From Thermoplasmatota archaeon (GTDB lineage: Archaea > Thermoplasmatota > SW-10-69-26 > JACQPN01 > JAJPHT01), in the NCBI GenBank assembly GCA_035526585.1, contig DATLCC010000065.1:11581-75580 (forward strand): a DNA stretch of 64,000 bases, given 5' to 3'. A program made the position numbers and the translations under genes. The first letter of the stretch is position 1, and every line of letters starts with the position of its first letter. This document shows positions 9,917-61,464 of the stretch, piece by piece. The notes under the pieces are model-generated. The model ran no database searches and was not told where the DNA came from. It saw nothing but the letters and a program-made list of their open reading frames with translations.

Positions 9917-9921
9917 CTTGG

Positions 9922-42164: not shown

Positions 42165-42169
42165 GCGCG

Positions 42170-42245: not shown

Positions 42246-42270
42246 GCGCGGGCCGTGGCGCTTGGGCGCG

Positions 42271-42885: not shown

Positions 42886-42963
42886 GATATCCCTCGCAGC
42901 TTGGCCTCGCGCTTAAAGCGTTCCGTCTTGCGGCGTTGCACGGCCGGAACGGCGGACCGCAGG

Positions 42964-43878: not shown

Positions 43879-43978
43879 CTGGCTTCGGACGAGTCGCCGG
43901 GGGTTAAAAGGGTTTGCGGACAGCGCGTGCAAGCGCTGCGGCGCTTGCCCGCGTCGTCCGTGTCGGCCTGCGGGCCGG

Positions 43979-45568
43979 CTATCGGTCTGGCACGACTCCG
44001 AAGGGCGCGTACGCCTCCGCCGCCCGCTGCAGGACGGCCGCGCGGTCCGCACCGGGCAAGAGCGGCACGATGACGCGCGGCGCGACGGGCGCGCCTTGCC
44101 CCGCGATGAACGCGGCGCTCGTCCACAGCGCCTGCGAGGGGCCGCCGAGCACGCCGCCGATGCCGACGATGGTGCGCGAGACGTTCCCGTGCCCGAGCTC
44201 GATGCGCGCCGTCGCGAACGGCGTCGCGACGAGGTCGGGGCTCCCGAGCGCGAGCGTGCGCGAGCGCGACAGGTTGTCGAGCGCGTCGGCCGTGTCGTTC
44301 CAGCGCCCCGAGGGGTCGAGCGCCCAAGGAGTCGGGCCCTCCGCGTGCGCAAGGAGGAGCACGTCGCGCGCGAGGGGCGCCGCGTCCATCGTCGTCGCCT
44401 CGCCCACGCCCGGTCGCCCGGCGAGCGCGAGCGCGGGCGCGCCGGCGCCTTCGACCGCGGGGAGCTTGGTGATATCGAGGTCGTGGGCAGCGGCGAAGAC
44501 GAGCGCGCCCTCGCTCGCGCGCTCAACGCGCGCGGGGAGCGGGCGCGGGTGGAGGGCGAGCGTCAGCCCGTCGGGCCCGCGCGCGGCGTCGAGCGCGCGC
44601 TCGTCGGCGTGGGTGAGGTTCGCAAGGAGCGCGGTGACGCCGTGCGTGCCGGCGAGCGCGCGTGCGTCGTCGAGGTTCAGGATGATATCAGCGCCGAGCG
44701 GGAGCTCGGCTTGAGCGCGCGCCACCGTCAGGTCGCGCGCGGTGGGCGTCGCGTTCGCGAGGATCGAGCGCGCCTGCGCGGCCGCGCCCTCGACCTGCTG
44801 GAGGCGGTCGTCGAACCACGTGTAGCCCGGCTCGCGCACGCGCACGATCCCCGCAGCGGCCGCGGTCGCAAGCTGACCGTTCGCCTCGAGCGTGAACGCG
44901 ATCACCCAGTCGCCCGCGGCCATCGTCTCGGGGAACGCGCCCGTCGTGAGCGGACCGTCGAGCGGCGCGGCGGCGCCAAACGGCGTCGCCGTGCCATCGG
45001 GCGCGGTCGCGGTCCCGTTCCAGTACGCGGGGCGCGCTCCGGGCCCGAGCTCGACGAGGTCCGGGAGGAACGCGCCATCGCGCGCGCCTTCGTCCACGCG
45101 CAGCCGCAGCCGCGCCTCGCCCTGGCGCACGGTGGGGAGCGCGCAGAGCTTCGCCGCCTCGCGCGCCTCGCATGTGGTGAGGCGCTCCATCTCGAAGTAG
45201 GTCGCCACGTAGGGCGTGGGCCACGCGTGCGAGCGCAGCGCGAGGGCGTCGCCGGTTGCGAGCCCGGTCGACGCCGCGACGATCGCGGTGCCCGGCTCAG
45301 GGAGCGCGATGCCCAGCGCTTCCGCTGCGCGCGCGTCGAGGCCCGCGTAGTCGTGGACGCGCGCGCCCATCGCCTCCCCCAGCACGAGCGCGCCAAGCGC
45401 CGCGGGCGCGTGCGCCTCCGCGAGGAGCGCATCTGCGCGCGTCGCGTCGAAGGGCCAGCGCCCATCGAGCGCGAGCAGGCGGAGCTGCGCCACGTCGGGC
45501 TCGGGCGTGGGCGTCGGCGGCGGCCCGCCGGGCGTGCCGCACCCCGCAAGCAGCGCGACGGCGAGAAG
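43979..45568 (-). CDS. lipoprotein, hypothetical (about 530 aa)
   Basis: ALPLLLAVALLAGCGTPGGPPPTPTPEP. Probable TTG start. The rest of the 1031-aa ORF is Arg-rich junk. Confidence 0.4.
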   Translation of the reverse strand, partial: LLAVALLAGCGTPGGPPPTPTPEPDVAQLRLLALDGRWPFDATRADALLAEAHAPAALGALVLGEAMGARVHDYAGLDARAAEALGIALPEPGTAIVAASTGLATGDALALRSHAWPTPYVATYFEMERLTTCEAREAAKLCALPTVRQGEARLRLRVDEGARDGAFLPDLVELGPGARPAYWNGTATAPDGTATPFGAAAPLDGPLTTGAFPETMAAGDWVIAFTLEANGQLATAAAAGIVRVREPGYTWFDDRLQQVEGAAAQARSILANATPTARDLTVARAQAELPLGADIILNLDDARALAGTHGVTALLANLTHADERALDAARGPDGLTLALHPRPLPARVERASEGALVFAAAHDLDITKLPAVEGAGAPALALAGRPGVGEATTMDAAPLARDVLLLAHAEGPTPWALDPSGRWNDTADALDNLSRSRTLALGSPDLVATPFATARIELGHGNVSRTIVGIGGVLGGPSQALWTSAAFIAGQGAPVAPRVIVPLLPGADRAAVLQRAAEAYAPFGVVPDR

Positions 45569-45742
45569 AAGAGGGAGCGCCCGCAACGCGCGACGAACCG
45601 ACGCTTGCGCCTTGAAGGGTTCGTTGCCGGAAGCGGAGGAGGAAGCGGGATCCGGAACCGGGACGGACGACCGCCGGGTCCCAGGTTCCGCTACCGCATC
45701 CTCTTCCGAGGTCCACAAACGAGAAGAGAGAGCGGAGTCGTC

Positions 45743-46993
45743 GCGGCGCCGATGCGTGCGCTCGCGCTCCTCCTCGTCCTCCTCCTCGCGGGCTGCTCGA
45801 CGCCGGGCGCGAAGGACGGCGGCTCCCCGACGGCGCCGACGGCGTCGGCGTCGCGCTTCCTCGCGCCGCAGGTCATGGGCGAGGGAGGCCCCGAGCCCGT
45901 GCTCGCGTTCTCGCCCGAGGGGGATCGGCTGTATCTCGCGGCCCAGGATCCCGAGGGGGGTGGCCCGTTCGTGTGGGTCTCGAAGGATGGCGGCGCGACG
46001 TTCGACCTCAAGCGCCCGACGCAGCAGGGGGGCGGCGAGGTGGATCTTGCGGCCGGCCCGAACGGCGCCGTCTATCTCACGCAGCTCGGGGCGCGCGGGA
46101 ACATCGTGAGCGTGTCGCGCGACAAGGGCGAGACGTGGGACTCGGCCCCCCTCGGGGGGGCCTCGCAATATTTCGACCGCGAGTGGCTCACGGTCGACGC
46201 GAACGGGCGCGCGTATCTCGTGGCGCGCGAGTTCGGCACGACCGCGAGCGCGGGCGTCGCAAGGAGCGACGATCGCGGGCTCACGTGGCCGCCGCGCGGG
46301 AAAGCGTGGACCGCGCTCGACGAGCCGGGCGAGGCGAACGGGCCGCTCGTCGCAGTGGGAGCCAACGTGCACCTCGCATACATCTGCCGCCAGGGCGAGG
46401 CCGTGTGCGTGTCCACGACGCGCGACGGCGGCCTCACGTGGTCGCGCGCGGTCGTGGCGAGCCGCGGCACGAACGCCGCGAACGTGTACCCTGCGCTCGC
46501 GAGCGTGGGCGGCGCGCTCCTTGTCGCGTGGGCGGATGCGAGCGACGGCGCGCTTGCGGTCTACACGTCGCGCTCGAGCGATGCCGCGTCGTGGTCCGCG
46601 CCCCAGCGGGCCTCCGCGACCGGCGGCACGGCGGCGCTCCCGTGGCTCGCCTCGCGCGGCGGCGCGACATGGCTCGTCTACCTGCGGGCCGACGAGGCGA
46701 TGGCCGCAACGGACTGCGCGCAGGCGCAGGGCGCGCGGTGGATCCCGACCGCGCAGCCCCTCGACGCGCAGGGCGCGCCGCAGGGCGAGCCGATGCCCCT
46801 CACGACGGAGCCGGCGCACGTGGGCATCGTGTCGCCGCCCGTGGGCCAGTCGTGCAGCGGCGGCGCCCGGGACCGCAACTTCGGCGATTTCTTCACCGCC
46901 GCGATCTCGCCCCCGGGGAAGCTCGTGGTCGCGTGGTCGGCCGACACCGGCACGATCGCGAGCACGCGGGACATCGTCGTTCGGGAACGATGA
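45743..46993 (+). CDS. lipoprotein with BNR/Asp-box sialidase-like beta-propeller (paralog 1)
   Basis: MRALALLLVLLLAGCSTPG. Asp-boxes SKDGGATF, SRDKGETW, SDDRGLTW, TRDGGLTW. Confidence 0.7.
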   Translation, partial: AAPMRALALLLVLLLAGCSTPGAKDGGSPTAPTASASRFLAPQVMGEGGPEPVLAFSPEGDRLYLAAQDPEGGGPFVWVSKDGGATFDLKRPTQQGGGEVDLAAGPNGAVYLTQLGARGNIVSVSRDKGETWDSAPLGGASQYFDREWLTVDANGRAYLVAREFGTTASAGVARSDDRGLTWPPRGKAWTALDEPGEANGPLVAVGANVHLAYICRQGEAVCVSTTRDGGLTWSRAVVASRGTNAANVYPALASVGGALLVAWADASDGALAVYTSRSSDAASWSAPQRASATGGTAALPWLASRGGATWLVYLRADEAMAATDCAQAQGARWIPTAQPLDAQGAPQGEPMPLTTEPAHVGIVSPPVGQSCSGGARDRNFGDFFTAAISPPGKLVVAWSADTGTIASTRDIVVRER

Positions 46994-47030
46994 GGCCGAG
47001 GGAACGACGGATCGGGGGCAGAGAGAAAGC

Positions 47031-47052
47031 GTAACCTCTTGGTTACACGTCT
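47031..47052. promoter_or_regulatory. dyad motif GTAACC-N4-GGTTAC-ACGTCT, followed by the ATGGCGCCAT palindrome
   Basis: Read directly. About 190 nt upstream of BNR paralog 2. Confidence 0.3.
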
Positions 47053-47173
47053 GCCACATGGCGCCATATGGCACACCCGTCGCGGTCCCGGTTCCCGGCT
47101 TCCGGCTTCCGGGTCCCGGGTCCTCGGTCCCCGGGTCCCGGTCCCCGGTCCCCTCTTTCCCGCGTTCCCACGT

Positions 47174-47212
47174 CCGTCACCCCCGTCCGGGGTGACACGA
47201 AGCATTTTAGTC
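47174..47212. promoter_or_regulatory. CCGTCACC-N8-GGTGACACG dyad plus TATA-like CATTTTAG about 25 nt upstream of the ATG
   Basis: Read directly. A related GTCACC/GGTGACACG pair lies upstream of paralog 3 (50560-50638). Confidence 0.35.
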
Positions 47213-47223
47213 GTCTAGACAAC

Positions 47224-50200
47224 ATGCCTCGGCTCAAGGTACTGGGGAGGCTCACCCACGTGTCCAACCGCGCTGCTTCGTTCATCGTCCTCGCTCTCCT
47301 AGTGCCGCTTGCGGCTCCCTTCGTGCCCGGCGCGGGCGCGCTCCCTTCGACAGCGCCGCGGTACTCGACGTACGTGGGTCCGGACGAGAACCAGGTCTTC
47401 ACGGTCTTCATCGACTCGGGCGGCGAGCCGTCGATCGGCGTGGACTGGAGGACGGGGGAGATCCTCTACCAGCGCGGGTTCCACACGTTCCGCGCGGAGC
47501 TCCAGGACGACGGCGGCTCGGACTGGATCGACGTCTCGGCGCCCAACACACCGTTCAACATCGACCCGATGCTCTTCACCGACAGCGCTACGGGCCGTAC
47601 GTTCGCGGGTGGGCTGGATGGCATGTGCAGCTCGATGGCCATCACGGACGATGGCGGCCGCACGTGGATCCCCGCGGGGAACATGTGCGTCCCGACGCTC
47701 GACCACCAGACGATCGCGTCGGGCCCGTGGGCGGCGACGACGCTCCCCTCGTCGCCCGCGTTCGATCGCGCGACCTACTACTGCGCGCAGGCGTCCGCCG
47801 TCACGTGCATCACGAGCCAGGACGGCGGCCTCACGTGGGGCCCGCCCGTTCCCGTGACGTGCGGTTTCGTCGATCCCGGCTTCCACGGGAGCGTGCACGT
47901 GGGCCCGGATGGCAAGGTCTTCCTTCCATTCAAGAACTGCCAGGGCGGCGCGGGCGTCGCGGTGAGCGCCGACAACGGCCTCACGTGGACGTCCCACAAG
48001 GTCCCGAGCGCGGTGTACCCGGGTGCTGGGTTCGACCCCGATGTCGCCACGACCCCGAGCGGCTGGCTCTATCTCGGCTACGCGAACGGCGCGACGGGCG
48101 CGGCCACGGCCACGATGTCCAAGGACAACGGCACGACCTGGTCCACGCCCGTGGACGTCGGCGCGCCGCTGGGCGTCGTCGCGAGCACGTTCCACGAGAT
48201 GGTCGCCGGCGACGACGGGCGTGCCGCGCTCGCGTTCCTTGGCACGACCACCGCGGGCAACGGGTACGACCCGGCCTTCGCGGGCGTGTGGGACCTCTAC
48301 GTCGCGACCACCTACGACGCGGGCGCGACCTGGACGACGGTCAAGGCCAGCACGGACCCGGTGCAGCGCGGCTGGATCTGCGCGGGCGGCACGGGCTGCG
48401 CGACGGACGAGTCCGGCCACCGCAACATGCTCGACTTCATGGACGCGCAGGTGGACGCGCAGGGCCGCGTGCTCGTGGGGTATGCCGACGGCTGCACCGG
48501 CGAATGTGCGGGTCCCGCAGGCACGAGCGCGCAGTCCTTCCACAGCCAGGCCACGATCACGCGTCAGTCGAGCGGGCTCACGCTCTTCTCGGCGTTCGAC
48601 CCGTCGACGGGCGCGCTCTTTGCGACCGGCGGCGGACCGTACACGACGCAGGCCGGGAGCGCCGTCGCGCTCGATGGCGAGGCGGCCAACGGCGTCGCGC
48701 CCTACAGCTACTCGTGGAGCGTGCTGAGCCGGCCCGCGGGCTCGGCGGCCGGCGCCTCGTCGATCGCCGCCGCCGCGACCGCGGGCGCGAGCTTCACGCC
48801 CGACGTCGTCGGCGACTATCTGCTGCGCTTCGAAGCGCGCGACGCCTCGGGCGAGCGCGCCGTCGACGTCGTGAAGGTCACCGCCGCGAGCCTGCCGGGC
48901 GTCCCCGTCGCGACGTGCGGCGTCCCGCTCGCGAGCGACGCGGTGGGCGACTCGACCGCCGCGGGCGCGGGCTCCTCGCGTCGTGATATCACGAGCGTCT
49001 CCGCGAGCGACGCGCAGGGCATTTGGACGCTCTGCGTGAGCGTGGCGAGCATGGCGGAGGCGGCGACGGCGGGCTCCAAGTTCACGTTCTTCTGGGACGC
49101 GCCCTACGAGCTTCCTCTCATCACGTACTCCGCATCGGCCACAGTCACGGCGGGCGGCACCGTCGGCAGCGCCCAGTTCTCCAAGGGCGTCGCGGGCGTG
49201 ACCCTCGCGCAGCTGGGCGGCCCGGCCTCCGCGTCGCTCGATGGCGACACGCTGCGCATCACGCTCCCGCGCCCCGGCGTCGGCGGCCCGCAGGATGGCG
49301 AGAGCGCGACGAACCTCTTCGTGCGCGTGGAGAACACCGCGACGCCTACGACGACGTGGGACCGTGCGCCCGACGCGGGCGGGCTCGCGTACACGTTCGG
49401 CCACAATGCGCCCGACGCGGTCGCGCCCGCGCAGGTGACGGGCCTCGCCGGCGAGGACGCGCAGACGGGCGGCCTCGTGAACCTCTCGTGGGACGCCTCC
49501 AGCGACGACATCGGCGTGAAGGACTACGTCGTCCGCCGCTCGACGCTTGCGGGCGGCCCGTACCGGACGGTCGCGCTCGTCGAGGGCCTCGCGTTCCAGG
49601 ACGCCGGCCTCGTCGACGGGACCGCGTACTACTACGCCATCGGCGCGCGTGATGGCGCGGGCAACATCGGCCCGCTCTCGGCCGAGGTCGCCGTCACGCC
49701 CACCGGGCCCGGTGGTCCCGCGGGCGACACGAGCGCGCCCACGTCGCCCGGCTCGCTCGCGACGAGCGCGCTCGCGTCCACCTCGCTCACGCTCACCTGG
49801 CTCGCGGCCGACGATCCCGAGACGGGGATCGACCACTACGAGGTGTACAAGGACGGCGTACGCATCGCGCAGACGACGCTCCTCACGCAGTCCGTGGGAG
49901 GCCTCGCGCCCTCCACGAGCTACGACCTCGAGGTGCGCGCGGTGAACGGCGCCGGCCTCGTCGGCGCGGGCGCGACGTTGACCGTGACGACACCCGCGCG
50001 CCCGCCCGACTGCGGGCAGGCCGCGTCGCCGTTCACGCTCGCGACCGACGCGGGCGGCGACAGCGCGCGCGGCGACGGGCGCGCGGAGATCGTGCGCGTG
50101 GGCGTGAAGGAGACGTCCACGCGCATCGGGTTCTACGTGAGCCTCGCCGACGCGAGCACCCCCGCCCCGAACACGATGTTCCGCGTGTCCTGGCGCACCG

Positions 50201-50505
50201 ACGACCTGCACGGCTTCGCCCTCTACGTCCGGCTCACGGACGCGGGAGCGGCGCCGGCGGGCGTGTGGGTCGTGACGCCGGCGAACGAGGTGAACACGCT
50301 CCGGCAGCCCCAGTTCGGCCTCCAGTGCGACACGGTGTTCATCAGCGTCCAGAAGCAGGACCTGCTGAACCCCGCGCCTGGCGAGCTCCTCCGGGATCTG
50401 CGCGTGACGGCGTCCGTGGACACGACGAACCCGCCCGAGTCCCAGATCTATGATGCCGCTCCTGATACCGGGGGCGTCGATTACGTGATGGGGAGCGCGG
50501 CCTGA
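47224..50505 (+). CDS. secreted BNR/sialidase-like propeller protein with PKD-like region and two fibronectin type III domains (paralog 2, 1093 aa)
   Basis: Signal peptide. Asp-boxes TDDGGRTW, SQDGGLTW, SADNGLTW, SKDNGTTW. N-terminal 470 aa collinear with paralog 3. Confidence 0.7.
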   Translation: MPRLKVLGRLTHVSNRAASFIVLALLVPLAAPFVPGAGALPSTAPRYSTYVGPDENQVFTVFIDSGGEPSIGVDWRTGEILYQRGFHTFRAELQDDGGSDWIDVSAPNTPFNIDPMLFTDSATGRTFAGGLDGMCSSMAITDDGGRTWIPAGNMCVPTLDHQTIASGPWAATTLPSSPAFDRATYYCAQASAVTCITSQDGGLTWGPPVPVTCGFVDPGFHGSVHVGPDGKVFLPFKNCQGGAGVAVSADNGLTWTSHKVPSAVYPGAGFDPDVATTPSGWLYLGYANGATGAATATMSKDNGTTWSTPVDVGAPLGVVASTFHEMVAGDDGRAALAFLGTTTAGNGYDPAFAGVWDLYVATTYDAGATWTTVKASTDPVQRGWICAGGTGCATDESGHRNMLDFMDAQVDAQGRVLVGYADGCTGECAGPAGTSAQSFHSQATITRQSSGLTLFSAFDPSTGALFATGGGPYTTQAGSAVALDGEAANGVAPYSYSWSVLSRPAGSAAGASSIAAAATAGASFTPDVVGDYLLRFEARDASGERAVDVVKVTAASLPGVPVATCGVPLASDAVGDSTAAGAGSSRRDITSVSASDAQGIWTLCVSVASMAEAATAGSKFTFFWDAPYELPLITYSASATVTAGGTVGSAQFSKGVAGVTLAQLGGPASASLDGDTLRITLPRPGVGGPQDGESATNLFVRVENTATPTTTWDRAPDAGGLAYTFGHNAPDAVAPAQVTGLAGEDAQTGGLVNLSWDASSDDIGVKDYVVRRSTLAGGPYRTVALVEGLAFQDAGLVDGTAYYYAIGARDGAGNIGPLSAEVAVTPTGPGGPAGDTSAPTSPGSLATSALASTSLTLTWLAADDPETGIDHYEVYKDGVRIAQTTLLTQSVGGLAPSTSYDLEVRAVNGAGLVGAGATLTVTTPARPPDCGQAASPFTLATDAGGDSARGDGRAEIVRVGVKETSTRIGFYVSLADASTPAPNTMFRVSWRTDDLHGFALYVRLTDAGAAPAGVWVVTPANEVNTLRQPQFGLQCDTVFISVQKQDLLNPAPGELLRDLRVTASVDTTNPPESQIYDAAPDTGGVDYVMGSAA

Positions 50506-50694
50506 GGCGCCTGCCGCATCCAAGCCAAGCGCATACGGGCTCGCGGGAACTCTTATCCTCCGTCACCTGTTCGGCCGAGCCTGAGGCATCGGAGGCAGAG
50601 AGAGCCCTCCCCGTGTCCCTCCCCCCAGGTGACACGGACCGTTCAAGGCCGCTCGACGCGCCCCCGGTGCTGGAGCTTCAGGAGGCCCCACCCA

Positions 50695-53600
50695 GTGTCC
50701 GCTCGCCGTTTCGCATCCGTCGTCACGCTCGCGATGATCCTTCCCCTCGCGCTGCCCCTCGTCCCGACCGCGCTCGCCGTGACGGCGAGCCCGCCCGGAC
50801 CCACGCTTCCGGGCTTCGCGGTCTTCGCGGCCCCCTCGGGAGCCTTCCACGGCGGTGAGCCCACCGTCGGGATCAACTGGCAGACGGACGCCATGATGTA
50901 CCACTCGGCGACGACGACCTACAAGGTCGTCGCGAACCTCGCTGCGAGCCCGCCCACCGCTTCGTGGACGGACGTCAGCCCCCCGAACTCGATCGAGAAC
51001 ATCGACCCGATGCTCTTCACGGACGTCGGCACCGGCCGCACCTTCGCGGGCGGCCTGGACGGCGAGTGCAGCATCATGTCGTTCACGGAGAACGACGGCG
51101 CGGACTGGACGCCCGTGGGCAACATGTGCGCCGGCGCCATCGACCACCAGTCGATCGGCCAGGGCGCCTGGAAGGAGCCGCGCCCGATCGGCGCCACCTA
51201 CGACCGCGCCACCTACTACTGCGCCCAGGGCTGGGTCTCGTTCCCCCAGAACGCGTGCGCGACCTCGCTCGATGGCGGCCTCACCTTCCTCCCCCCCGTC
51301 ATGTGGGATGGCAACTGCTTCGGCCTCCACGGCCACGTGAACGTCTCCACCGTGACGGGCACGGCGTTCGTCCCGACGCGCACGTGCGGCGGCAAGGCCG
51401 GCATGGGCTGGAGCGACGACAACGGCGCCACCTGGCACGACAAGCAGATCGCGCCCACGAACTCCCCCTCGAACGGCTTCGATCCCTCCATCGGCGTCGC
51501 GAGCGGCGGCCGCGTCTGGTTCGCGTACGAGAGCTCCTCCTGGCTCCCCTACGTGGCCTACTCGGACGACGACGGCGCGAACTTCAACATCCTGGGCACG
51601 AACATCGGCGCGGACAAGGGCATCCAGACGGCGACCTTCATGCGCGCGATCGCCGGCGACAACGACCGCATCGCCGTCGCGTACCTCGGCTCCACGACCG
51701 ACGGGAACCCCTTCGTCGCCAACTGGCCCGGCGTCTGGGACCTCTACGTCTCCTTCTCGTACGACAGCGGCGCGACGTGGGAGACCGTGAAGGTCACGAG
51801 CGACCCCGTCCAGCGCGGCTGGATGTGCAGCGCCGGCCTCAGCTGCAACTCGGGCCGCAATCTCCTCGACTTCATGGGCAGCACCCTCGACGCGACCGGG
51901 CACGTCATCGTCGGCTTCCCCGACGGCTGCATCGGCGCGTGCGCGAGCGCCTTCGGCACCGCGTCGCAGTCCACGAACAACTGGCCCACCATCGCGCGCC
52001 AGGTCACCGGCAAGGGCCTCTTCGCGGCGTACGACCCGGTGAGCATCTCGCTTGCGCCCCTCACGGGCACCGCCGGCTCGCCCGCGACCCTCGCGGGCAC
52101 GGCGACGCTCTCGCAGCCCTACTCGCTCGTCATCAACTGGGGCGACGGCAGCACGCAGACCGTCTCCTCCCTCACCGACGCTGCGCTAAGCGTCGCGCAC
52201 ACCTACCTTGCGGCCGGCACGTACACCGTGACGGTCGACGGCACCGGCGCCTCGGGCGACGAGGCCTCCGGCAGCACGAGCGCGACCATCTCCGGCGGCC
52301 AGGGCCCCGGCAGCTCGGTCCTCATCGACGAGCCCGCCGCGCACGAGACCGTCGGCGCCGCCGTCCACGTCGTGGGCCGCGTCGTCGGCGACGGCAGCAA
52401 CCTGCCCCCGACCGCCGCGTTCAGCTTCGTCGTCAGCGGATCGAGCGTCGCCTTCGACGGCACGGGCTCCAGCGACCCCGAGAGCGGCGCGCTCGCGTAC
52501 GCCTGGGCCTTCGGCGACGCCGCGACCGGCGCCGGCGCGACCGCGAGCCACGCGTACGCGACGCCGGGCACGTACGACGTCTGCCTGACCGTCGCCGACG
52601 TCGGCGGCCTCACGGACGACGCGTGCGCCTCCGTCACGATCCAGGGCCAGGCGAGCGTGGACACGATCGCCGAGGACGCCGAGGGCGACGAGGCCGCGAA
52701 CAGCCTCAGCGGCTCCAACGTCCCCGCGATGGACATCCTCAAGCTCGAGATCACGAAGAACGCGGCGCAGGAGCCCGTCTTCATCCTGACCCTGAAGGAC
52801 CTGCAGACCGACCCGCCCGTCACGGAGGCCGCGAACGGCATCTACTGGGCGGTCGACTGGAGGTCCCCCGACAACGCGCACTCCTACGTGCAGTACAGCG
52901 TGACGACGACGGGCGCGGAGCCCACCGTCACGTGCGTCTACGGCATCATCACCGTCACGCAGGGGCAGAACATCCAGGAGAACGAAGGGACCACGACCTG
53001 CAGCACGACGCTTGGCCCGAACGGCAAGCTGTACCTCACGTACCCGTCCGCGGGCCTCGAGGCGCACGGATTCGAGGCCGACAGCACGCTCGGGAACGTC
53101 GTCGGCGCGGCCGGCACGGTCCTCGAGGTCCCGGAGGCCGCCTCCGGCTTCTTCGCGTACGACACGACGAGCGCCGCGGACCACCAGCTCCACGCGGGCG
53201 TCGCCCCCTGGCAGCTCATCGGCTCGCAGCCCGCGCACGTCGCGAAGGCCGCGCCCGCCACGCCGCCCGCGAACCCGCAGATCGTCGACAAGGTCAGCGA
53301 CCCCGTCGGCGACAACTCGCCCGTGGGCAACATCCAGAGCGCCTGGTTCGACGCGGACCCTGACAACCTCTACGTCGGCATGAAAGTGGCCGACATCCCC
53401 GCCGACTCCACCGCGACGGCCTTCACGTACTACTCGGTGAACTTCCAGCCCGCCTACGAGGTCGACGACCCCCAGTGGGGCGCGACCGGCACCGTCACGG
53501 GCCTGCGCGTCACCGCGCTCTACAGCCCCGTCGCCTTCGACAGCCTCCCCAGCGTCCCCCACACCGAGGACGCGACGAGCTTCGAGCTGCAGGTCCTCTC

Positions 53601-56600
53601 GATCAACCCGACGACGGGTGCCAGCAACTTCGGCACGCTTGGCGTCGTCACCGGCACGGTGGACCCGAACAGCGATATCATCTGGTGGGTCGTGCCCCGC
53701 ACGCTGCTCCAGAGCCCGCCCGGCGGCGCGCTCCTGGACACGACGAGCGCGGCCTCCGCGCCCGCGATCGCTGGCGCCGTCACCTTCGGCGGCGCGCTCG
53801 CCGACACGACCGGCACGGGCGACGCCTACTCCTTCCCGAGCGTCGTCGTGACGCCGCCCACCGTGACGCTCTCCGCGACGCCCGCCGCGGGCGCCGCGCC
53901 GCTCAGCGTCACGTTCGCGCCCACCGTCACGCCCGCCTCCATGGCGACGTGGAACCTCGACTTCGGCGACGGCACGCCCGACGCGACCGGCACGACGAGC
54001 TTCCCCGTCCTCTCGCACGTCTACGAGGGCGAGGGCAGCTATCACGCCGTCCTCACCGTGACCGCGCCCAACGGCGGCGTCGGCACCGGCGCGACGGACG
54101 TCACCGTCGGCAGCACGGAGCTCCCGCCCGTGCGCGTCACCGTCGCCGCCGGGAACCTTCCCGCCGTCGACGCCATCTGCGTCGCGAGCTGCAGCGACTG
54201 GAGCGCCGACCTCGACCTTGGCTCCCTCCCCGACGGCGAGGTCACCCTCACCGCGACGCTCCTCGTGAACGGCAACGTCGTCGACACGGACGCGACCGTG
54301 GTCGAGCTCGCGACCGCGACGAGCGCGATCACCATCGACGCGCCCGCCTCCGGCGCCACGATCGACGTCGGCACGACGCTCGACGTCGCGGGCCGCATCG
54401 TCGGCTCGACGAACCTCCCGCCGCAGGCGAGCCTCGCGGGCGACGTCGGCAGCGGCCTCGCGCCCCTCGACGTGACCTTCACGCTGGGCGGCGACGACGA
54501 CAGCGGCATCGCGGGCTGGCGCTTCAGCTCCGGCGACGGCCGCATCGTCGATGGCACCGCGATCCTGCCCCTCGAGATCCAGCACACGTACCAGACGCCG
54601 GGCACGTATCACCCGAGCTTCCGCGTCACCGACACGAACGGCGTCCAGGCCACGAGCACGGGCCAGGTCGTCGTGCAGGCCGAGAACCGCCTCCCGACGA
54701 CCCCCGCCTCGCCCGTCCCCGCGGACGCCGCGGCGAACGTGCCCGTGGGCGCGACGCTGAGCTGGGTCTCCACCGACCCCGACGCGACGCCGCTCACCGC
54801 CGACGTGTACCTCGACGCGGTCGACGGCACGACGCTCGTCGCGAGCGACCAGACCGGCGCGTACATGCCGGTGGGCCTCCTGCCCTCCACGACGTACTTC
54901 TGGCACGTGGACGTGAGCGACGGGATCGCCACCGTCGCCGGCCCGACCTGGAGCTTCACGACGGCCGCCCCCGTCCTCACGGAGGCGCAGAAGCCCCACG
55001 TCGTCGTCGCGCTCATCGACACCGGCACGAACCCGTACCACACGCAGTTCACGCGCGCCGGCCTCGTCGAGGACCCCTCGACCTACATCACGGGCCTCGC
55101 CTCCTCGCAGCTCAAGGAAGTGGACCTCTGCTTCTACGACGCCGCGACGAAGACGGTCGACCGCACGCGCTGCCCCAGCGGCTTCACGAGCGCCTGGCAG
55201 CAGGACGTCGCGAACGGCCGCTGGGCCGGCTTCGGCGTCTCGCCCCTCTCCGCGATCGGCGCGGGCCAGGGCAAGGTCGCGTGGTTCCCCGGCACGAACA
55301 TGATGGTCGTCTCGTTCGCGCACGACCCGAGCGTCGCCCCCGTGGGCGTCGACACCGGCGTCGGCCTCCCGCTTGACGCGGGAGACGCGCACGGCTCGTG
55401 GACGAGCTCCAACGTGGGTGGCCTCACGACCGGCACGTGCCCCGAGTGCATCGTCGTCATGATCGAGGCCGACTCGGTCGACGCGATCAGCGCCGGCTAC
55501 CGCTGGGCCGCGAACCAGCCGTGGATCGACGTCATCACGAGCAGCACGAGCGTCGGCCTCGTCGGCGCCGGCTGGAACCCCGGGGACTTCTTCGACACGA
55601 ACTCGCAGGCCGCGAAGACGACCGTCACGCGCGGCGGCCTCATGTTCGAGTCCTCGGGCAACGGCGTCGCGAACGCCGGCGTCGCCCCGACCTCGACCTA
55701 CCTCTACGGCAACAGCAACCCGTGGACCATCGCCGTCGGCTGCAGCGCCGACGGCACGGGCCAGCCCTGCGGCTACTCGGACTTCCCGAACCCCATCACG
55801 GCGAGCGGCGACGCGCGCATGAGCGCGAGCCCCGCGAGCATGAGCGGCACGGAGCCCGTCGGCGGCACGAGCTTCTCGAGCCCGAGCGCGGCCGGCGTCA
55901 CGGCGCGCGCGCTCTACGGCATCCGCGCCGCCGTCGGCGACACCGGCGAAGGCGCGAAGGCCACGGCGACGCACAGCCTCGTGCGCATCCCGAGCGGCTA
56001 CACGCTCCCCGCGCGCGGCCCGCTCGCGAACGGCGAGCTCACGCGCCTCGAGCTCGAAGAGGCGCTCTTCAAGACCGCGCGCCGCGGCATCGTCCCCAAG
56101 GTGCCCACGTACCTCACGCCCAACAGCGAGATCCCGCAGAGCCCCGTCTCCTTCGTCAAGGAAGGCTACGGCGACGTCTACCGCGGCGACTGGGGCGTCG
56201 GCCACGCGAGCGCCGAAGCCACGTGGGCGAGCACGGGCGACATCGTGAGCCACATCCTCACGCCGCCCGCGACGGGCGCCGTCTGGCCCAACCGCTTCAT
56301 CGAAGAGACGTGGTGGGAGACGGTCGTCGAGCCCACGCAGATCGCCCTCTTCGGCGGAGACGTCCCCGACACCGACGGCAACGACGGGTTCCCGATGAAC
56401 GCGGCCGGCGCCCAGGGCGGCCTGCAGGGCTACGCGGGCCCCGCGTTCGGCGTGAGCGCGCACGTCCCCGCCATCACGGACGCGAACGCGGACGTGCCGG
56501 TGGGCGTCGTGCCCTCGGCGAGCGCGAACCGCATCTACCTCCACCACGCGAACCTCGGCCCCGACCCCGCCGACCCCGTGAACGACCTGATCGAGTTCTA

Positions 56601-59600
56601 CATGAACACGATCGTCGACCCCGCGGGCGGCACGGACTGCAGCGGCACGGAAGGCTGCGCCGACCAGAGCGGCCTTGGCGGCACGGGCGGCGGCACGGCG
56701 GCGGCGACGCAGGTGTACGAGCTGAGCTACCCGCGCCTCGATGGCATCTCGCTCCTCGACCGCAGCAAGGACGCGCTCGTGCACATCGACGCGACCGGCT
56801 TCGCCGGCGCGCCCGCGAGCCCGCTCACGCTCCACGTCGCGCTGAAGACGGGCGAGTCGCTCGTCCTCGCGGGCGACGTGACGCGCTCGGGCACGGGCAC
56901 CTACGAGCTGCGCGGCAAGCCCCTCGTCGACAGCGTCTCCGACCCCGTGACGCTCACGATCGGCTGGGACGGCCCCGTCTACAGCTTCCACGTGAACTCG
57001 CAGGGCGCCTCGTACCTGGATCTCCCGATCCAGGCGACGCTCCCCCCGACGGACGCGGTCCCGGTCAAGTACTACGTCGACGACATCTCGACGTTCACCA
57101 CGAACGGCGGCAGCGTCTTCCTCACGCGCGACGCGACGAAGGTCGCCGGCGACGCGGACAAGGTGACGTTCTTCCCCTTCCCGCAGGTGGGCGGCGTGAA
57201 GCTCAACCTCGCTTCCGATGACGCGCTCGCGGCGAGCCAGGGCGTCCTCGCGGACGCGGGCGAGGCGCACATCTACATCTGCACGTCGTCCACCTCGCAG
57301 GGCGGCAGCCCCCGTGTGCCTCCGGGCGGCGCGGCGCAGTACACGGCCGCGCTCGCGCTCACGATCGGCAACATCCCGGTGGGCGGCGGCTCGGTCACGA
57401 CGACGATCGGCGGCACCGACAGCTCGACGAACTTCATCCCGCTGACGATCCCGCTGACCCTGCACACGGCGCTCTTCCCCGCGGACGCGCCCGTCACCGG
57501 CACGCTCACGCTGAACGGCCCCGGCGGCGTGTTCACCGAGAACATGGGCGTCTGCGGCGGCGGCGGCGCGCACCCCTGGAGCATCGAGTTCGCATACCAC
57601 GAGCTCGCGGCCCCGACGGCGACCATCGACGCTCCGGGCGGCGCGCTCAAGGGCATCGCCACCCTCACGGGCACGGCGAGCTTCCCCGCGGCGCCCGCTG
57701 CGGCGGACGTCAAGTGGTTCGCGCAGGACTTCGACGGCTGGGACACGCAGGTCGACTCGTTCACGATGGACACCGGCGGCCCCGGCGCGGCCTCGGGCGG
57801 ACCGCTCTTCGAGCCGACGCCCGGCGGCTACGTCCTCACGTTCAAGAGCGCGCGCCCCGTCGCACAGGACGCGCCGCGCCTCTCGAGCGCGGGCGTCGCC
57901 TCGGCGCACTTCTGGGTCCTCGGCGTCCCCGCGGCCCCTGACGTGACGGTCGACTTCAGCATCCTCCTCGAGAATGCGCAGGGCGGCCAGCGCCTCCTGG
58001 GCTCGGGCAGCGAGACGAAGCACGTCATGTCCGAGCTGGGCGCGGTCGCGCCCTTCGCCGAATCCGAGTACGTCGTGAGCTTCACCCCCGCGATCCTCGA
58101 GCCCGCGGCCGACGAGCGCCTCGTCATGATCGTGCGCGTCCACCACGCCACGATCGACGCGACGACCACCGGCGTGAGCTCGTTTGGCGGCGACGAGGCC
58201 GAGCCCATCTACGTGAGCCTCCCGAAGGACGTGAGCGCCGCGCCCACCGCGCAGGCGATCGACCTCGTCATCGGCCCGCTCGCGAAGACGGTGCCCGTCA
58301 CGAACGGCGCCTGGAGCACGACCATCGACACCGCGCAGCTCGCGAACGGCCAGCACGCCGCGCGCGCCACGCCGCACGCGGACTACGCGGGCGTCGTGCG
58401 CAGCGGCATCGCGGCGCTCCGCGGCGTCACGGTGAGCAACACGCAGGGCACGCTCAACACGCCGCCCGTCGCGGACCTCACCATCCCCGGCGCGAGCGGC
58501 GCCGCCCCGCTGCGCGTCGTCGCGCAGATCGCGGGCAGCGACGCCCAGACGCCCGCGGGCCAGCTCGCGTGGCGCCTCGACTGGGGCGACGGCAGCGCGC
58601 CGGCGAGCGGCACGGGCGTCCCCGCGACGGCCGTCCACACCTACGGCGTCGCCAACGCGGTCGCGCGCCTCACGGTCACGGACCTCGGCGGCGAGATCGG
58701 CTCCGACACGGCGCCCGTCTCCGCCTTCGAGGCGCCCCCCGTGCGCCGCGTGCTCGTCTCGCTGGGCGATGGCGACCTCATCGACGCGGTCGACGAAGCC
58801 GGTGACGGCTCGTTCAGCACGTGGTCCGCGAGCGTCCCCGCCAACGTGGCGGGCGACCTCGAGCTCGTCGCGCAGGAGCTGCGCGGCAGCGACGTCCGCT
58901 CCACGATGACGATCCCGCTCCACGTGATCGTCCCCGAGCTCCCCGACGTGCGCATCCTCTCGCCCGCAGACGGCGCGGTCGTCGCGCCTGGCACCCTCCT
59001 CAGCGGCACCGTCTCGTACGAGACGGGCCCCGTGGAGAGCGTCGTCGTCTACACGGCCACGGGCCCCGGCGTCCTTGCGACGAGCGGTGACGGCTTCGCC
59101 ACCTGGAGCGCGAACGTGGACGACCTGGGCCTCACCGAGGACTGGCCCTCGTACGTGCACGCGGTCGCCACGAGCGCGACGGGCAACGGCGAGGCCGCCG
59201 TCTCGCTGACGCTCAACGCGGCGCCCAACGCCGAGATCCGCGCGCCCTTCGCGCCGCTCGCCATGAGCGACGCGAGCTTCGAGGCCGTCTACGTCCCGTC
59301 CGCCACCGAGGCGCCCGTCGCGTCGTACGCGTGGAGCTTCGGCGACGGCGGGACGAGCACGGACGCGAACCCGACGCACGTCTTCGCGCACAGCGGCACC
59401 TACGAGCTCCTGCTCACGGTGACCGACACGAACGGCGCGAGCGGCTCCGCGGCGAGCTTCGTCTACGTGCTCAACAACGCGCCCATCGTCACGCTCGACG
59501 TCGACGTCGCCGAGCCCACGGTGCAGGACACCGTGACGTTCACCTCGACGGCGGACGACATCGACGGCACGATCGAGAGCCTCCGCATCTCCGTCTACGA

Positions 59601-61464
59601 CGCGCAGGAGGAGCTCCTCGCCGAGGGCGGCGACTCGCTGAGCCTCAGCTTCCCCGACGACGGAACGTATCTCGTCGTCGCGCGCGCGACCGACAACGAG
59701 GGCGCGGAGAGCCTCAGCTCGATGCGCATCTGGGTCCTCAACCTACGCCCCGTCGCAGCCCTCACGGCCGCGCCGACTCTCGTGGGCACGGGCCAGGACG
59801 TGACGCTCGACGCGAGCGGCAGCAGCGACCCCGACGGCGCGATCGCCGAATACCGCTTCGATCCCGGCGACGGAACGGGCGTCTCGATCTGGAGCCAGCC
59901 CGTCGTCGCCCACACGTACGCGATCGCCGGCACGTTCCTCGCGACCGTGACCGTCGTCGACGACGACGGCAGCGACGCGACGAGCGACGCGGTCCAGATC
60001 GTCGTGAACGCGGCGCCCATCCTCGACGCGATCGGCAACAAGATCGTCGGCGAGGCCGAGGCGCTCGGCTTCACGGTGACGGCGAGCGACGCGGAGGGCG
60101 ACCCGCTGACCTTCAGCGCAGACGCGCTCCCCGCCGGCGCGACCTTCGACACCGCGACCGGAGAGTTCGCCTGGACGCCCGACTTCGGCACCGAGGGCAA
60201 CTACGTCGTCACCTTCGGCGTCACCGACGGTCTCAGCAGCGACAGCGAGCCGATCTACATCAGCGTCGGCAACGTGGACCGCCCGCCGGTCCTCGCGGGC
60301 GTGGGCGACAAGCTCGGAGCCGAGAACGCGCTCCTGACGTTCGCCCTCGCGGCGACGGACCCGGACGCCGCGGACACGCTGCGCTACACGGCGACGGGCC
60401 TGCCGCAGGGCGCGTCGCTGGGCGAGCTCACCGGCGTCTTCAGCTGGACGCCCAGCTACACGCAGGCGAACGACTACACGGTGACGTTCACCGTGAGCGA
60501 CGGCGAGATCACGGACAGCGAGACGGTCACGCTCGCGATCGCGAACGTCGACCGCGCGCCGGTCCTCCAGGCGATCGGCGCGACGAGCGTCAAGCAGCTC
60601 GCGACGGTCTCGATCCCGCTCACGGCGACGGACGCGGATGGCGACGCCATCACGTTCACGGCCGAGGGCGCGCCGGGCCTCAGCGTCGAGGACCGCGGCG
60701 CCGGGCATGGCGTGCTGCACTTCACGCCGCCGCTCGTGACGCCAGGCCCGTACGTCATCACGGTGTACGCGCTCTCGGGCGAGTCGTTCGCCGCGCAGTC
60801 CACGGTGATCACCGTCCTCTTCAAGACGGACTTCACCGTGAGCGGCGTGGGCACGACCTTCCTCAGCGCCTCGCCGGGCGAGACCGTCTCGCTGCACGCG
60901 CGCATCGCGAACACGGGCCCGCAGACGGACACGTTCGCGCTCGACCTCGGGCTCACGAGCTCGCTGTGGAAGCACACGGACCTGCCGCCCACGATCACGC
61001 TCGAGCCTGGCCAGGTGGCGGACCTCGACGTGGACGTCTCCGTGCCGCCCACGCAGCCCGTGACGTTCACGACCATCACCGCGACCTCGCTTGGCGACGG
61101 CACGACGGCGCGCACGCTGCGCTTCCGCATCGACGTCCCCGTCATCGTGACGCTCGCCGAGATGGGCCACCTGTCGAACGCGGTGGACGTCCCCCGCGGC
61201 GTCGTGCGCGTCACGCACCTCGACGGCACGCCCGCCGTCGCCGCGCTCGTCACGGTGTCCCAGATGCCTCCCGCGCTGGGCGGCAGCTTCCGCACGAGCG
61301 CGACGGGCTCGACGAACAGCTCCGGCGACTTCGCCTTCGACCTCTCGCAGGACCCGAGGGCGATGACGCCGGGCGAGCACCAGCTCGTCATCACGGCGAA
61401 GAAGGTCGGCGGCCTCGAGACGACGCTTGTCACCCGCTACTTCGTCGGGCGCGCGCCCATCTGA
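50695..61464 (+). CDS. giant secreted multidomain protein (about 3589 aa): BNR propeller, PKD, subtilisin S8, cadherin-like, CARDB and carboxypeptidase-regulatory-like domains
   Basis: GTG start with GGAGG 10 nt upstream. Possible RR (SARRFAS) signal. S8 triad contexts ALIDTGTNPYH, DAHGSWTSSNVGG, GTSFSSPSAAG at about nt 55000-55900. PKD signatures INWGDGSTQ, WAFGDA. Three tandem cadherin-like repeats of about 95 aa at about nt 60000-60850. Confidence 0.75.
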   Translation: MSARRFASVVTLAMILPLALPLVPTALAVTASPPGPTLPGFAVFAAPSGAFHGGEPTVGINWQTDAMMYHSATTTYKVVANLAASPPTASWTDVSPPNSIENIDPMLFTDVGTGRTFAGGLDGECSIMSFTENDGADWTPVGNMCAGAIDHQSIGQGAWKEPRPIGATYDRATYYCAQGWVSFPQNACATSLDGGLTFLPPVMWDGNCFGLHGHVNVSTVTGTAFVPTRTCGGKAGMGWSDDNGATWHDKQIAPTNSPSNGFDPSIGVASGGRVWFAYESSSWLPYVAYSDDDGANFNILGTNIGADKGIQTATFMRAIAGDNDRIAVAYLGSTTDGNPFVANWPGVWDLYVSFSYDSGATWETVKVTSDPVQRGWMCSAGLSCNSGRNLLDFMGSTLDATGHVIVGFPDGCIGACASAFGTASQSTNNWPTIARQVTGKGLFAAYDPVSISLAPLTGTAGSPATLAGTATLSQPYSLVINWGDGSTQTVSSLTDAALSVAHTYLAAGTYTVTVDGTGASGDEASGSTSATISGGQGPGSSVLIDEPAAHETVGAAVHVVGRVVGDGSNLPPTAAFSFVVSGSSVAFDGTGSSDPESGALAYAWAFGDAATGAGATASHAYATPGTYDVCLTVADVGGLTDDACASVTIQGQASVDTIAEDAEGDEAANSLSGSNVPAMDILKLEITKNAAQEPVFILTLKDLQTDPPVTEAANGIYWAVDWRSPDNAHSYVQYSVTTTGAEPTVTCVYGIITVTQGQNIQENEGTTTCSTTLGPNGKLYLTYPSAGLEAHGFEADSTLGNVVGAAGTVLEVPEAASGFFAYDTTSAADHQLHAGVAPWQLIGSQPAHVAKAAPATPPANPQIVDKVSDPVGDNSPVGNIQSAWFDADPDNLYVGMKVADIPADSTATAFTYYSVNFQPAYEVDDPQWGATGTVTGLRVTALYSPVAFDSLPSVPHTEDATSFELQVLSINPTTGASNFGTLGVVTGTVDPNSDIIWWVVPRTLLQSPPGGALLDTTSAASAPAIAGAVTFGGALADTTGTGDAYSFPSVVVTPPTVTLSATPAAGAAPLSVTFAPTVTPASMATWNLDFGDGTPDATGTTSFPVLSHVYEGEGSYHAVLTVTAPNGGVGTGATDVTVGSTELPPVRVTVAAGNLPAVDAICVASCSDWSADLDLGSLPDGEVTLTATLLVNGNVVDTDATVVELATATSAITIDAPASGATIDVGTTLDVAGRIVGSTNLPPQASLAGDVGSGLAPLDVTFTLGGDDDSGIAGWRFSSGDGRIVDGTAILPLEIQHTYQTPGTYHPSFRVTDTNGVQATSTGQVVVQAENRLPTTPASPVPADAAANVPVGATLSWVSTDPDATPLTADVYLDAVDGTTLVASDQTGAYMPVGLLPSTTYFWHVDVSDGIATVAGPTWSFTTAAPVLTEAQKPHVVVALIDTGTNPYHTQFTRAGLVEDPSTYITGLASSQLKEVDLCFYDAATKTVDRTRCPSGFTSAWQQDVANGRWAGFGVSPLSAIGAGQGKVAWFPGTNMMVVSFAHDPSVAPVGVDTGVGLPLDAGDAHGSWTSSNVGGLTTGTCPECIVVMIEADSVDAISAGYRWAANQPWIDVITSSTSVGLVGAGWNPGDFFDTNSQAAKTTVTRGGLMFESSGNGVANAGVAPTSTYLYGNSNPWTIAVGCSADGTGQPCGYSDFPNPITASGDARMSASPASMSGTEPVGGTSFSSPSAAGVTARALYGIRAAVGDTGEGAKATATHSLVRIPSGYTLPARGPLANGELTRLELEEALFKTARRGIVPKVPTYLTPNSEIPQSPVSFVKEGYGDVYRGDWGVGHASAEATWASTGDIVSHILTPPATGAVWPNRFIEETWWETVVEPTQIALFGGDVPDTDGNDGFPMNAAGAQGGLQGYAGPAFGVSAHVPAITDANADVPVGVVPSASANRIYLHHANLGPDPADPVNDLIEFYMNTIVDPAGGTDCSGTEGCADQSGLGGTGGGTAAATQVYELSYPRLDGISLLDRSKDALVHIDATGFAGAPASPLTLHVALKTGESLVLAGDVTRSGTGTYELRGKPLVDSVSDPVTLTIGWDGPVYSFHVNSQGASYLDLPIQATLPPTDAVPVKYYVDDISTFTTNGGSVFLTRDATKVAGDADKVTFFPFPQVGGVKLNLASDDALAASQGVLADAGEAHIYICTSSTSQGGSPRVPPGGAAQYTAALALTIGNIPVGGGSVTTTIGGTDSSTNFIPLTIPLTLHTALFPADAPVTGTLTLNGPGGVFTENMGVCGGGGAHPWSIEFAYHELAAPTATIDAPGGALKGIATLTGTASFPAAPAAADVKWFAQDFDGWDTQVDSFTMDTGGPGAASGGPLFEPTPGGYVLTFKSARPVAQDAPRLSSAGVASAHFWVLGVPAAPDVTVDFSILLENAQGGQRLLGSGSETKHVMSELGAVAPFAESEYVVSFTPAILEPAADERLVMIVRVHHATIDATTTGVSSFGGDEAEPIYVSLPKDVSAAPTAQAIDLVIGPLAKTVPVTNGAWSTTIDTAQLANGQHAARATPHADYAGVVRSGIAALRGVTVSNTQGTLNTPPVADLTIPGASGAAPLRVVAQIAGSDAQTPAGQLAWRLDWGDGSAPASGTGVPATAVHTYGVANAVARLTVTDLGGEIGSDTAPVSAFEAPPVRRVLVSLGDGDLIDAVDEAGDGSFSTWSASVPANVAGDLELVAQELRGSDVRSTMTIPLHVIVPELPDVRILSPADGAVVAPGTLLSGTVSYETGPVESVVVYTATGPGVLATSGDGFATWSANVDDLGLTEDWPSYVHAVATSATGNGEAAVSLTLNAAPNAEIRAPFAPLAMSDASFEAVYVPSATEAPVASYAWSFGDGGTSTDANPTHVFAHSGTYELLLTVTDTNGASGSAASFVYVLNNAPIVTLDVDVAEPTVQDTVTFTSTADDIDGTIESLRISVYDAQEELLAEGGDSLSLSFPDDGTYLVVARATDNEGAESLSSMRIWVLNLRPVAALTAAPTLVGTGQDVTLDASGSSDPDGAIAEYRFDPGDGTGVSIWSQPVVAHTYAIAGTFLATVTVVDDDGSDATSDAVQIVVNAAPILDAIGNKIVGEAEALGFTVTASDAEGDPLTFSADALPAGATFDTATGEFAWTPDFGTEGNYVVTFGVTDGLSSDSEPIYISVGNVDRPPVLAGVGDKLGAENALLTFALAATDPDAADTLRYTATGLPQGASLGELTGVFSWTPSYTQANDYTVTFTVSDGEITDSETVTLAIANVDRAPVLQAIGATSVKQLATVSIPLTATDADGDAITFTAEGAPGLSVEDRGAGHGVLHFTPPLVTPGPYVITVYALSGESFAAQSTVITVLFKTDFTVSGVGTTFLSASPGETVSLHARIANTGPQTDTFALDLGLTSSLWKHTDLPPTITLEPGQVADLDVDVSVPPTQPVTFTTITATSLGDGTTARTLRFRIDVPVIVTLAEMGHLSNAVDVPRGVVRVTHLDGTPAVAALVTVSQMPPALGGSFRTSATGSTNSSGDFAFDLSQDPRAMTPGEHQLVITAKKVGGLETTLVTRYFVGRAPI
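60000..60850 (+). repeat. three tandem cadherin-like domain repeats of about 285 nt within the giant gene
   Basis: Protein-level repeat ...FTVTASDAEGDPLTFSA.../...FALAATDPDAADTLRYTA.../...IPLTATDADGDAITFTA... Confidence 0.5.

Follow-up and report, generated by a model that had tools for sequence, protein, structure and literature searches.

The window analysed here is a 64,000-nucleotide (nt) stretch of contig DATLCC010000065.1 from a Thermoplasmatota archaeon (positions 11,581 to 75,580). It carries three consecutive genes on the plus strand, here called p1, p2 and p3, and each of the three encoded proteins begins, as read from its sequence, with an export signal. Our main subject is p3, which encodes a giant mosaic protein of 3,589 amino acids (aa) combining a β-propeller head, a predicted subtilase of family S8 and a long array of immunoglobulin (Ig)-like domains. 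The initial annotation had described a tandem, same-strand trio of genes ending in this giant one, and the gene order, the common strand and the lengths of p2 (1,093 aa) and p3 are confirmed; p3 is identical to the public protein P0178. The archaeal origin assumed there is also well founded, with archaeosortase A, a TrmB-like regulator and an archaeal-type RNase HII encoded within the window and with p1 being 100% identical to P0132, a 'sialidase family protein [Candidatus Thermoplasmatota archaeon]' from a metagenome-assembled genome (MAG).

Residue numbers of p3 are counted throughout from GTG 50629; the numbering of the annotated protein is obtained by subtracting 22. The features of p3, all on the plus strand, are as follows.

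50695..61464, +, p3: 3,589-aa giant mosaic protein, single continuous gene
50695..50784, +, signal peptide or signal anchor (predicted), the only hydrophobic segment in p3 (Kyte-Doolittle scan)
50806..52038, +, seven-bladed BNR/Asp-box β-propeller (predicted), aa ~60-470
52066..52644, +, PKD/Ig-like block 1, aa ~480-672 (PKD_4/PKD matches, internal repeats)
52651..53853, +, two modules of ~200 aa each without a family match, aa 675-1075
53854..54966, +, PKD/Ig-like block 2, aa ~1076-1446 (PKD matches, repeats)
54991..56403, +, divergent subtilase (S8) of ~470 aa, predicted from Pfam, motifs and homologue conservation
56404..58446, +, region of ~680 aa without a family match, aa 1926-2606
58447..60018, +, PKD/Ig-like block 3, aa ~2607-3130 (PKD_4, PKD and Big_7 matches, repeats)
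60004..60828, +, three He_PIG/Big_9 (cadherin-like) repeats, aa ~3126-3400 (internal repeats)
60862..61461, +, C-terminal Ig-like domain, then a carboxypeptidase-regulatory-like β-sandwich

The giant gene p3

The longest open reading frame (ORF) of p3 starts at GTG 50629 (3,611 aa). The probable start is GTG 50695, which is preceded by GGAGG ~10 nt upstream and is homologous to the position at which the orthologues begin. Since the GC content is ~70% across the whole window, the question arises whether the 10.8-kb ORF is several genes fused by metagenomic mis-assembly or a frame that is open by chance. Long spurious ORFs do arise in high-GC DNA, 43814-46993 being an example, and breaks are seen in two relatives, L001 having a scaffold gap and L024 an in-frame TAG. 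However, the check for frameshifts and chimerism gave a uniform coding signature along p3, with a third-codon-position GC content (GC3) of 0.977±0.011 over 600-nt windows and every window ≥0.945, and the gene contains no Ns and no DNA repeats of more than ~80% identity over a few tens of bases. Independently assembled orthologues are moreover collinear with it over their full length, each in a single high-scoring segment pair: P0181 (3,643 aa) with 43% identity over p3 aa 61-3610, P0179 with 51% over aa 23-2602, and P0180 with 48% over aa 1389-3606. In a Thermoplasmatales MAG, L003, a homologous frame stays open for at least 4,918 aa until the contig ends, and it is collinear with p3 aa 469-2803 (2,335 aa) at 40% identity. 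A fused or accidental frame is thus extremely improbable, the chimera reading being effectively refuted, and p3 is a genuine single gene.

Subtilase, propeller head and stalk of p3

The claim that p3 contains a complete-looking subtilisin S8 domain, with its Asp, His and Ser contexts, is upheld by profile search. In a scan restricted to aa 1441-1940, and only there, the Peptidase_S8 profile (PF00082) matches with 30.7 bits (E 2.5e-7), its cut-off being 21.8. The motif types D-T-G, H-G-S, G-N-G and G-T-S-x-x-x-P are all present, in the sequences ALIDTGTNPYH, DAHGSW, SSGNGV and GGTSFSSPSAAG, respectively, and follow the Asp-His-Ser order of S8. The predicted catalytic residues are D1464 (nt 55018-55020), H1588 (nt 55390-55392), the oxyanion N1678 (nt 55660-55662) and S1748 (nt 55870-55872). 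This tetrad is invariant in the alignment of 12 close homologues (12/12), and the same combination is kept in 134 of the 138 cluster representatives that cover the domain. When the low-confidence structural model of the domain was compared with the PDB using Foldseek, all 50 best matches were subtilases, at template-modelling (TM) scores of 0.4-0.55 normalised to the target. The subgroup is rare: among 1.84 billion proteins, E≤1e-30 is reached by only 17 representatives and E≤1e-3 by 447. Its bacterial members, for example that of Fontimonas and P0007, have ~1,250 aa and C-terminal sorting tails. Taken together, the S8 domain of p3 appears to be an intact, catalytically complete-looking and very divergent subtilase.

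An internal subtilase might also act on its own chain, cutting p3 between modules so that the propeller head, the protease and the adhesin tail are freed or activated, each as a surface component of its own. The position of the protease in mid-chain, where it lacks a propeptide, agrees with such a self-processing precursor, and autoprocessing is common among subtilases. The orthologue in L024, a Logan contig of SRR33230329, is furthermore divided at a natural module junction: a single in-frame TAG (9900-9951) falls where p3 has a module boundary, at aa ~2603, and the two parts are called as separate genes, of 2,545 and 1,007 aa. The TAG could reflect a sequencing error, a real split or read-through. 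However, it may stem from a sequencing or assembly error in a short-read contig, two other orthologues are single-frame across the same boundary, and no cleavage motif was found in p3. We therefore consider a self-processing precursor to be an unlikely explanation.

The N-terminal modules of p2 and p3 are collinear, with 41% identity over 560 aa (E 6e-104), and each contains five Asp-boxes. A collinear N-terminal propeller of about 470 aa had been proposed for all three proteins; this stands for p2 and p3, in which the propeller measures ~410 aa, but not for p1. Scanned alone, the p3 head scores 29 bits with Pfam BNR_2 and does not reach the cut-off of 31.4. Its homologues of 45-55% identity number at least 1,157 and are found mainly in MAGs of Frankiales and Mycobacteriales (Actinomycetota) and in Thermoplasmatota, and for 120 listed family members the coverage is 82-92%; the p3 head is nearer to these homologues than to that of its neighbour p2. 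These relatives make up an uncharacterised secreted propeller family, annotated at NCBI as 'sialidase family protein' or 'PKD domain-containing protein', to which the heads of both p2 and p3 are 45-55% identical. Typical members have 440 aa (propeller alone), ~590 aa (with PPC) or ~745 aa (with PKD, FN3 and PPC), whereas p3 adds ~3,100 residues, including the protease, to the same head. All 52 invariant columns of the family are present in p3; they include E77, D126, D132, the pair D172-H173, Y197, D285, Q395, R410-N411, D414 and seven Cys, the last of which suggest disulfides and an extracellular protein.

The label 'sialidase-like' is accurate at the level of an Asp-box propeller and no further. 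GH33 sialidases such as NanA are likewise Asp-box (BNR) β-propellers, and the p3 propeller resembles them in its weak BNR_2 match and in a Foldseek E value of ~1e-10. However, the TM-scores to sialidases are 0.34-0.40, at 12-15% identity, and the best structural matches are seven-bladed folds, the nearest of which include lectins (PLL/PHL). The six-bladed propeller with FRIP motif and arginine triad that marks GH33 is not what is found in the p2/p3 head, where the FRIP motif and the triad are both absent, and we rejected the sialidase assignment on these grounds. The best match of the propeller region in a sequence search of the PDB lacks significance (E 0.18), and no relative of the family was found that has been solved or characterised.

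The size of the family, with its invariant Asp-His pair and its other invariant polar residues and cysteines, could also be read as the mark of a new family of extracellular enzymes, hydrolases or lyases. The propeller would then serve in Thermoplasmatota as one among several exchangeable catalytic heads, the classical subtilase being another, on a conserved giant stalk with a divergent subtilase of its own, and p3 would be a bifunctional mega-enzyme for glycoproteins or cell-wall polymers, possibly self-matured. We hold this reading to be doubtful. As a separate observation, the actinobacterial propeller homologues (L025 and L026, from Frankiales and related organisms) lie in a conserved housekeeping context, with miaB on one side and miaA/dapF on the other, an odd location for a secreted protein.

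The remainder of p3 is dominated by Ig-like repeats. As had been described, PKD domains and three cadherin-like repeats are present: the PKD matches total 263 bits, He_PIG (88 bits) and Big_9 (52 bits) each match in three stretches, and Cadherin_5 is sub-threshold. Block 2 ends in an FN3-like domain directly before the protease, in a segment that aligns to the FN3 of p2. The two modules at aa 675-1075 gave no Pfam match at E values up to 5, yet they are conserved in L003, L001, P0179 and P0181. A relationship between them and the modules of p2 was tried and rejected (hhalign 0.1-20%). The region at aa 1926-2606, without matches in Pfam or NCBIfam, is seen only in the giant orthologues and contains an internal duplication, aa 2131-2330 resembling aa 2331-2606 (hhalign 96.9%). 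At the C-terminus, which is conserved in P0180 and in the continuation of the L024 gene, FixG_C matches with E 0.009. The proposed carboxypeptidase-regulatory-like domain does obtain a CarboxypepD_reg match of E 0.0027, although its 18.4 bits remain below the threshold of 32.3, and the proposed CARDB domain is lost (E 0.32, not significant). Nine unmatched segments scanned singly gave only sub-threshold Big_7, CarboxypepD_reg and FixG_C. The stalk is accordingly best described, in terms of predicted folds, as about twenty Ig-like domains (PKD, FN3-like and He_PIG) interrupted by ~1,080 aa of lineage-specific modules.

Each of p1, p2 and p3 has one N-terminal hydrophobic segment and none elsewhere in a Kyte-Doolittle scan, and the N-terminus of p3 is conserved in the orthologues P0179 and P0181. 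These observations, and the sorting tails of the bacterial S8-like homologues, speak for export. The p3 signal holds an Arg-Arg pair, and export by the twin-arginine (Tat) route was considered and rejected; because the pair is not conserved in orthologues, export via Sec is the more likely.

The gene neighbourhood is partly retained in relatives. In L023 the order is divergent lipoprotein gene (minus strand), p1-like gene, giant gene, RNase HII, SCP2 and an EF-Tu-domain protein, with flanks as in the window; the p1 orthologue (63% identity) lies directly upstream of the giant gene. In L024 it is a p2 orthologue (48% identity) that precedes the giant gene. A search for the trio in related genomes thus finds the giant gene with a p1-like or a p2-like partner, but L023 lacks p2. 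The combination of propeller and S8-like domain is also present in P0184 (2,282 aa, the L004 gene) and P0232 (2,166 aa). In L003 and in L001, which comes from a JGI metagenome and is apparently the same gene as L003, a classical subtilase with propeptide stands in the place of the propeller head. The collinear part of L003 includes the PKD blocks, the unmatched modules and the S8-like domain, and it differs from p3 in this classical head and in its greater length. It follows that the architecture is recurrent in the clade and that the head is exchangeable. The architecture had been called unusual, and it is indeed rare, but it recurs in at least five lineages below 50% identity; no description of it was found in the literature searched. 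We also noticed that L003 (5270-20023 of PXUB01000034.1, Thermoplasmatales archaeon SW_10_69_26) carries two S8 domains in one chain, and that P0006 (1,891 aa) pairs a classical S8 with a divergent one.

These relatives bear on whether p3 is mainly an adhesin or matrix protein, whose modules bind surfaces, cells or glycans while the S8 domain is a minor or regulatory accessory, for example for shedding or maturation of p1, p2 or the lipoprotein neighbour. More than half of p3 consists of Ig-like repeats typical of adhesins, the lectin folds near the propeller would suit binding, and the lipoprotein genes are syntenic with the giant gene. However, the strict conservation of the catalytic tetrad suggests that catalysis is under selection, and the second, classical subtilase that replaces the propeller in relatives fits an enzymatic head better. 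A predominantly adhesive p3 seems to us improbable, if somewhat less so than self-processing.

p1, p2 and the surrounding genes

The other features of the locus are listed below in the order of their coordinates.

41337-42236, -, CDP-alcohol phosphatidyltransferase (pssA)
42271-42882, -, phosphatidylserine decarboxylase homologue (pssD)
42964-43896, -, archaeosortase A (artA), TIGR04125 150.8 bits against a cut-off of 75, ~2 kb upstream of p1
43979..45592, -, predicted lipoprotein (LLAGCG) of 537 aa, from translation, divergently transcribed from p1
45752..46993, +, p1: 413-aa predicted lipoprotein with a small BNR/Asp-box propeller, signal peptide and lipobox LLAGC
47176..47210, +, p2 promoter-proximal elements: perfect 8-nt dyad GTCACCCC-N5-GGGGTGAC (47176-47196) overlapping GGTGACACG
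47224..50505, +, p2: 1,093-aa secreted protein (export predicted)
50594..50636, +, p3 upstream block in common with p2: GGCAGAGAGA and GGTGACACG

p2 is a shorter paralog of p3, with the same head and no protease. Its signal is followed by the seven-bladed propeller (~nt 47371-48618), a PKD-like domain, an unmatched module (aa 560-735), two FN3 domains (~nt 49426-49998) and a second copy of the module (aa 930-1093), the two modules being mutually homologous (hhalign 96.5%). BNR_2 scores 42.2 bits and fn3 43.3 bits. Of the PKD and two FN3 domains previously assigned to p2, one FN3 is confirmed and the second is supported by an NCBIfam match to the CbhB-type FN3 (aa 728-928), while the PKD-like domain is only sub-threshold (K319L-like PKD, 21.4 bits, cut-off 27).

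p1 had been given as 416 aa from 45743. This position is not a start codon, and the gene starts at ATG 45752 and encodes 413 aa; p1 is present in sequencing run SRR8554898. Its propeller, with four Asp-boxes (S/T-x-D-x-G-x-x-W/F), scores 41.6 bits with BNR_2 (cut-off 31.4) and is the sole module; together with a signal peptide carrying the lipobox LLAGC, this agrees with the earlier view of p1 as a lipoprotein and nothing more. BLASTP finds p2 at E 1e-7 and nothing significant to p3. Against the p3-propeller profile, hhalign gives 93.8% probability, placing p1 18-270 on p3 147-437, an offset of ~130 residues. Since p1 is aligned out of register and by a remote match only, it falls outside the p2/p3 propeller family. 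The trio of paralogs is thus reduced to a close pair, p2 and p3, and p1 is best regarded as a smaller, distant Asp-box propeller relative, not as their collinear paralog.

Sequence inspection finds the lipobox pattern L-[AS]-[GA]-C in p1 (MRALALLLVLLLAGCS), in the divergent neighbour (...LLAVALLAGCG) and in the L023 orthologue (LLLAGCA), and lipidation is predicted for them. The 537-aa neighbour has no family match in Pfam or NCBIfam. Its orthologue in L023, at 53% identity, holds the same position beside the p1-like gene, and the gene may belong with p1 to p3 to a single locus of surface proteins.

Upstream of p2 and p3, GGCAGAGAGA has exact matches only at 47017-47026 and 50594-50603, and GGTGACACG occurs at just two sites on the plus strand of the window, 47191-47199 and 50628-50636. 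With one mismatch allowed, GGCAGAGAGA is not enriched over shuffles. A proximal block of ~48 nt is also alignable between the two genes, and an AT-rich, TATA-like CATTTTAG lies ~20 nt before the p2 ATG. The upstream region of p1 contains none of GGCAGAGAGA, GGTGACACG, the p2 dyad and the TATA-like element. Each gene had been credited with its own dyad motif; p2 does have a perfect 8-nt dyad, but the other inverted repeats upstream are mostly imperfect (72-90%), and a search for a dyad motif shared by the three upstream regions found none. The likeness between the p2 and p3 upstream regions is probably that of a region duplicated along with the gene head, although GGCAGAGAGA and GGTGACACG could be a shared regulatory site.

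The artA-pssD-pssA cluster (41337-43896, minus strand) adjoins these genes for surface proteins without PGF-CTERM. An artA-pssA-pssD synteny is known from Methanosarcina, where it has been tied to lipid anchoring of ArtA substrates (PMC7157517). Despite the proximity of artA, p1, p2 and p3 were rejected as archaeosortase A substrates, as their C-termini (...DIVVRER, ...DYVMGSAA and ...RYFVGRAPI, without a hydrophobic segment) contain no PGF motif or helix.

Further upstream, at ~38001-39057 on the plus strand, lie four small ORFs of ~55-75 aa, tandem paralogs with the common pattern KELKV-IPVKYHLQLH-LKV--GRQI-GV--EALD-YF, which resemble ribbon-helix-helix proteins. They are neighboured by the TrmB-like regulator (39200-40298, minus strand) and a response-regulator-like ORF (~40150-40700, minus strand). 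Two ORFs of more than 1,000 aa that overlap real genes, 43814-46993 (plus strand) and 43979-47074 (minus strand), are artefacts of the 70% GC composition. The former is open for 1,059 aa yet noncoding upstream of 45752, and the true genes were picked out by frame-specific GC3. Scans of the window for tRNA genes and Rfam families were empty.

Interpretation and comparison with large cell-envelope subtilases

The reading we prefer, with a probability of roughly 0.6, is that p3 is an enzyme carried on a long stalk, either extracellular or at the cell surface, and a very large and rearranged relative of the cell-envelope subtilases that would likely serve to reach polymeric substrates. We infer that the protein would be exported by its Sec-type signal and would work extracellularly as a mega-protein that binds substrates and bears a protease. 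The Ig-like array may space the protease and the propeller and present them to polymers such as detrital protein or glycoprotein, and the propeller head may be a ligand-binding or catalytic partner of a putatively active divergent subtilase.

Several results weigh against this interpretation. Whole-protein scans of p3 with Pfam and NCBIfam missed the S8 domain, a PDB sequence search with the S8 region returned nothing significant (E 0.11), and the AlphaFold2 model of the domain is poor (predicted local distance difference test score 57, predicted TM-score 0.64) because its alignment had 12 sequences. In p3 there is no profile match to the I9 propeptide, on which folding depends in most secreted subtilases. 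About 30% of the protein, namely the ~1,080 aa of the two unmatched regions taken together (675-1075 and 1926-2606), is without a family match, and the genomic context of the actinobacterial propeller homologues offers no functional clue. Finally, p3 had been presented as surface-anchored, and this could not be maintained, there being no C-terminal transmembrane segment and no PGF-CTERM in p1, p2 or p3. With no anchor found, surface association of p3 is a guess, and the protein could simply be released. The association with the S-layer that had also been suggested is likewise a guess.

Thermoplasmatota of soil and sediment, all uncultured, are believed to feed in part on detrital protein. For such organisms p3, a conserved 370-kDa protein with predicted export and a protease that looks intact, is a candidate route to polymeric substrates. 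The locus also draws attention to two uncharacterised families, a divergent S8 subgroup without propeptide and a large secreted propeller family that is labelled 'sialidase' without sialidase hallmarks, and the swapping of heads among orthologous giant proteins is a neat case of modular evolution. These findings leave the current understanding standing.

The known systems closest to p3 are the large cell-envelope subtilases (MEROPS S8), among them pyrolysin of Pyrococcus furiosus, lactococcal PrtP, streptococcal C5a peptidase and the STABLE protease on the stalk of Staphylothermus tetrabrachion. As in these enzymes, a predicted extracellular S8 domain with large insertions and FN3/Ig-like spacers is set in a very long polypeptide, and the Asp-His-Ser order and the oxyanion Asn are found in p3. 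The differences lie mainly in the arrangement. A pyrolysin-type layout, in which a prepropeptide is followed by the catalytic domain and the protein has a wall or membrane anchor, is not seen in p3, where S8 starts at about residue 1455, some 1,430 residues into the mature chain instead of immediately following a prepropeptide. Neither an I9 propeptide nor a PA domain nor a C-terminal anchor was detected in p3. Its S8 belongs to a rare divergent subgroup, and a propeller head is present at the N-terminus. On this comparison p3 is a variant, specific to its lineage, of the large cell-envelope proteases already known, and neither an artefact nor a new type of system.

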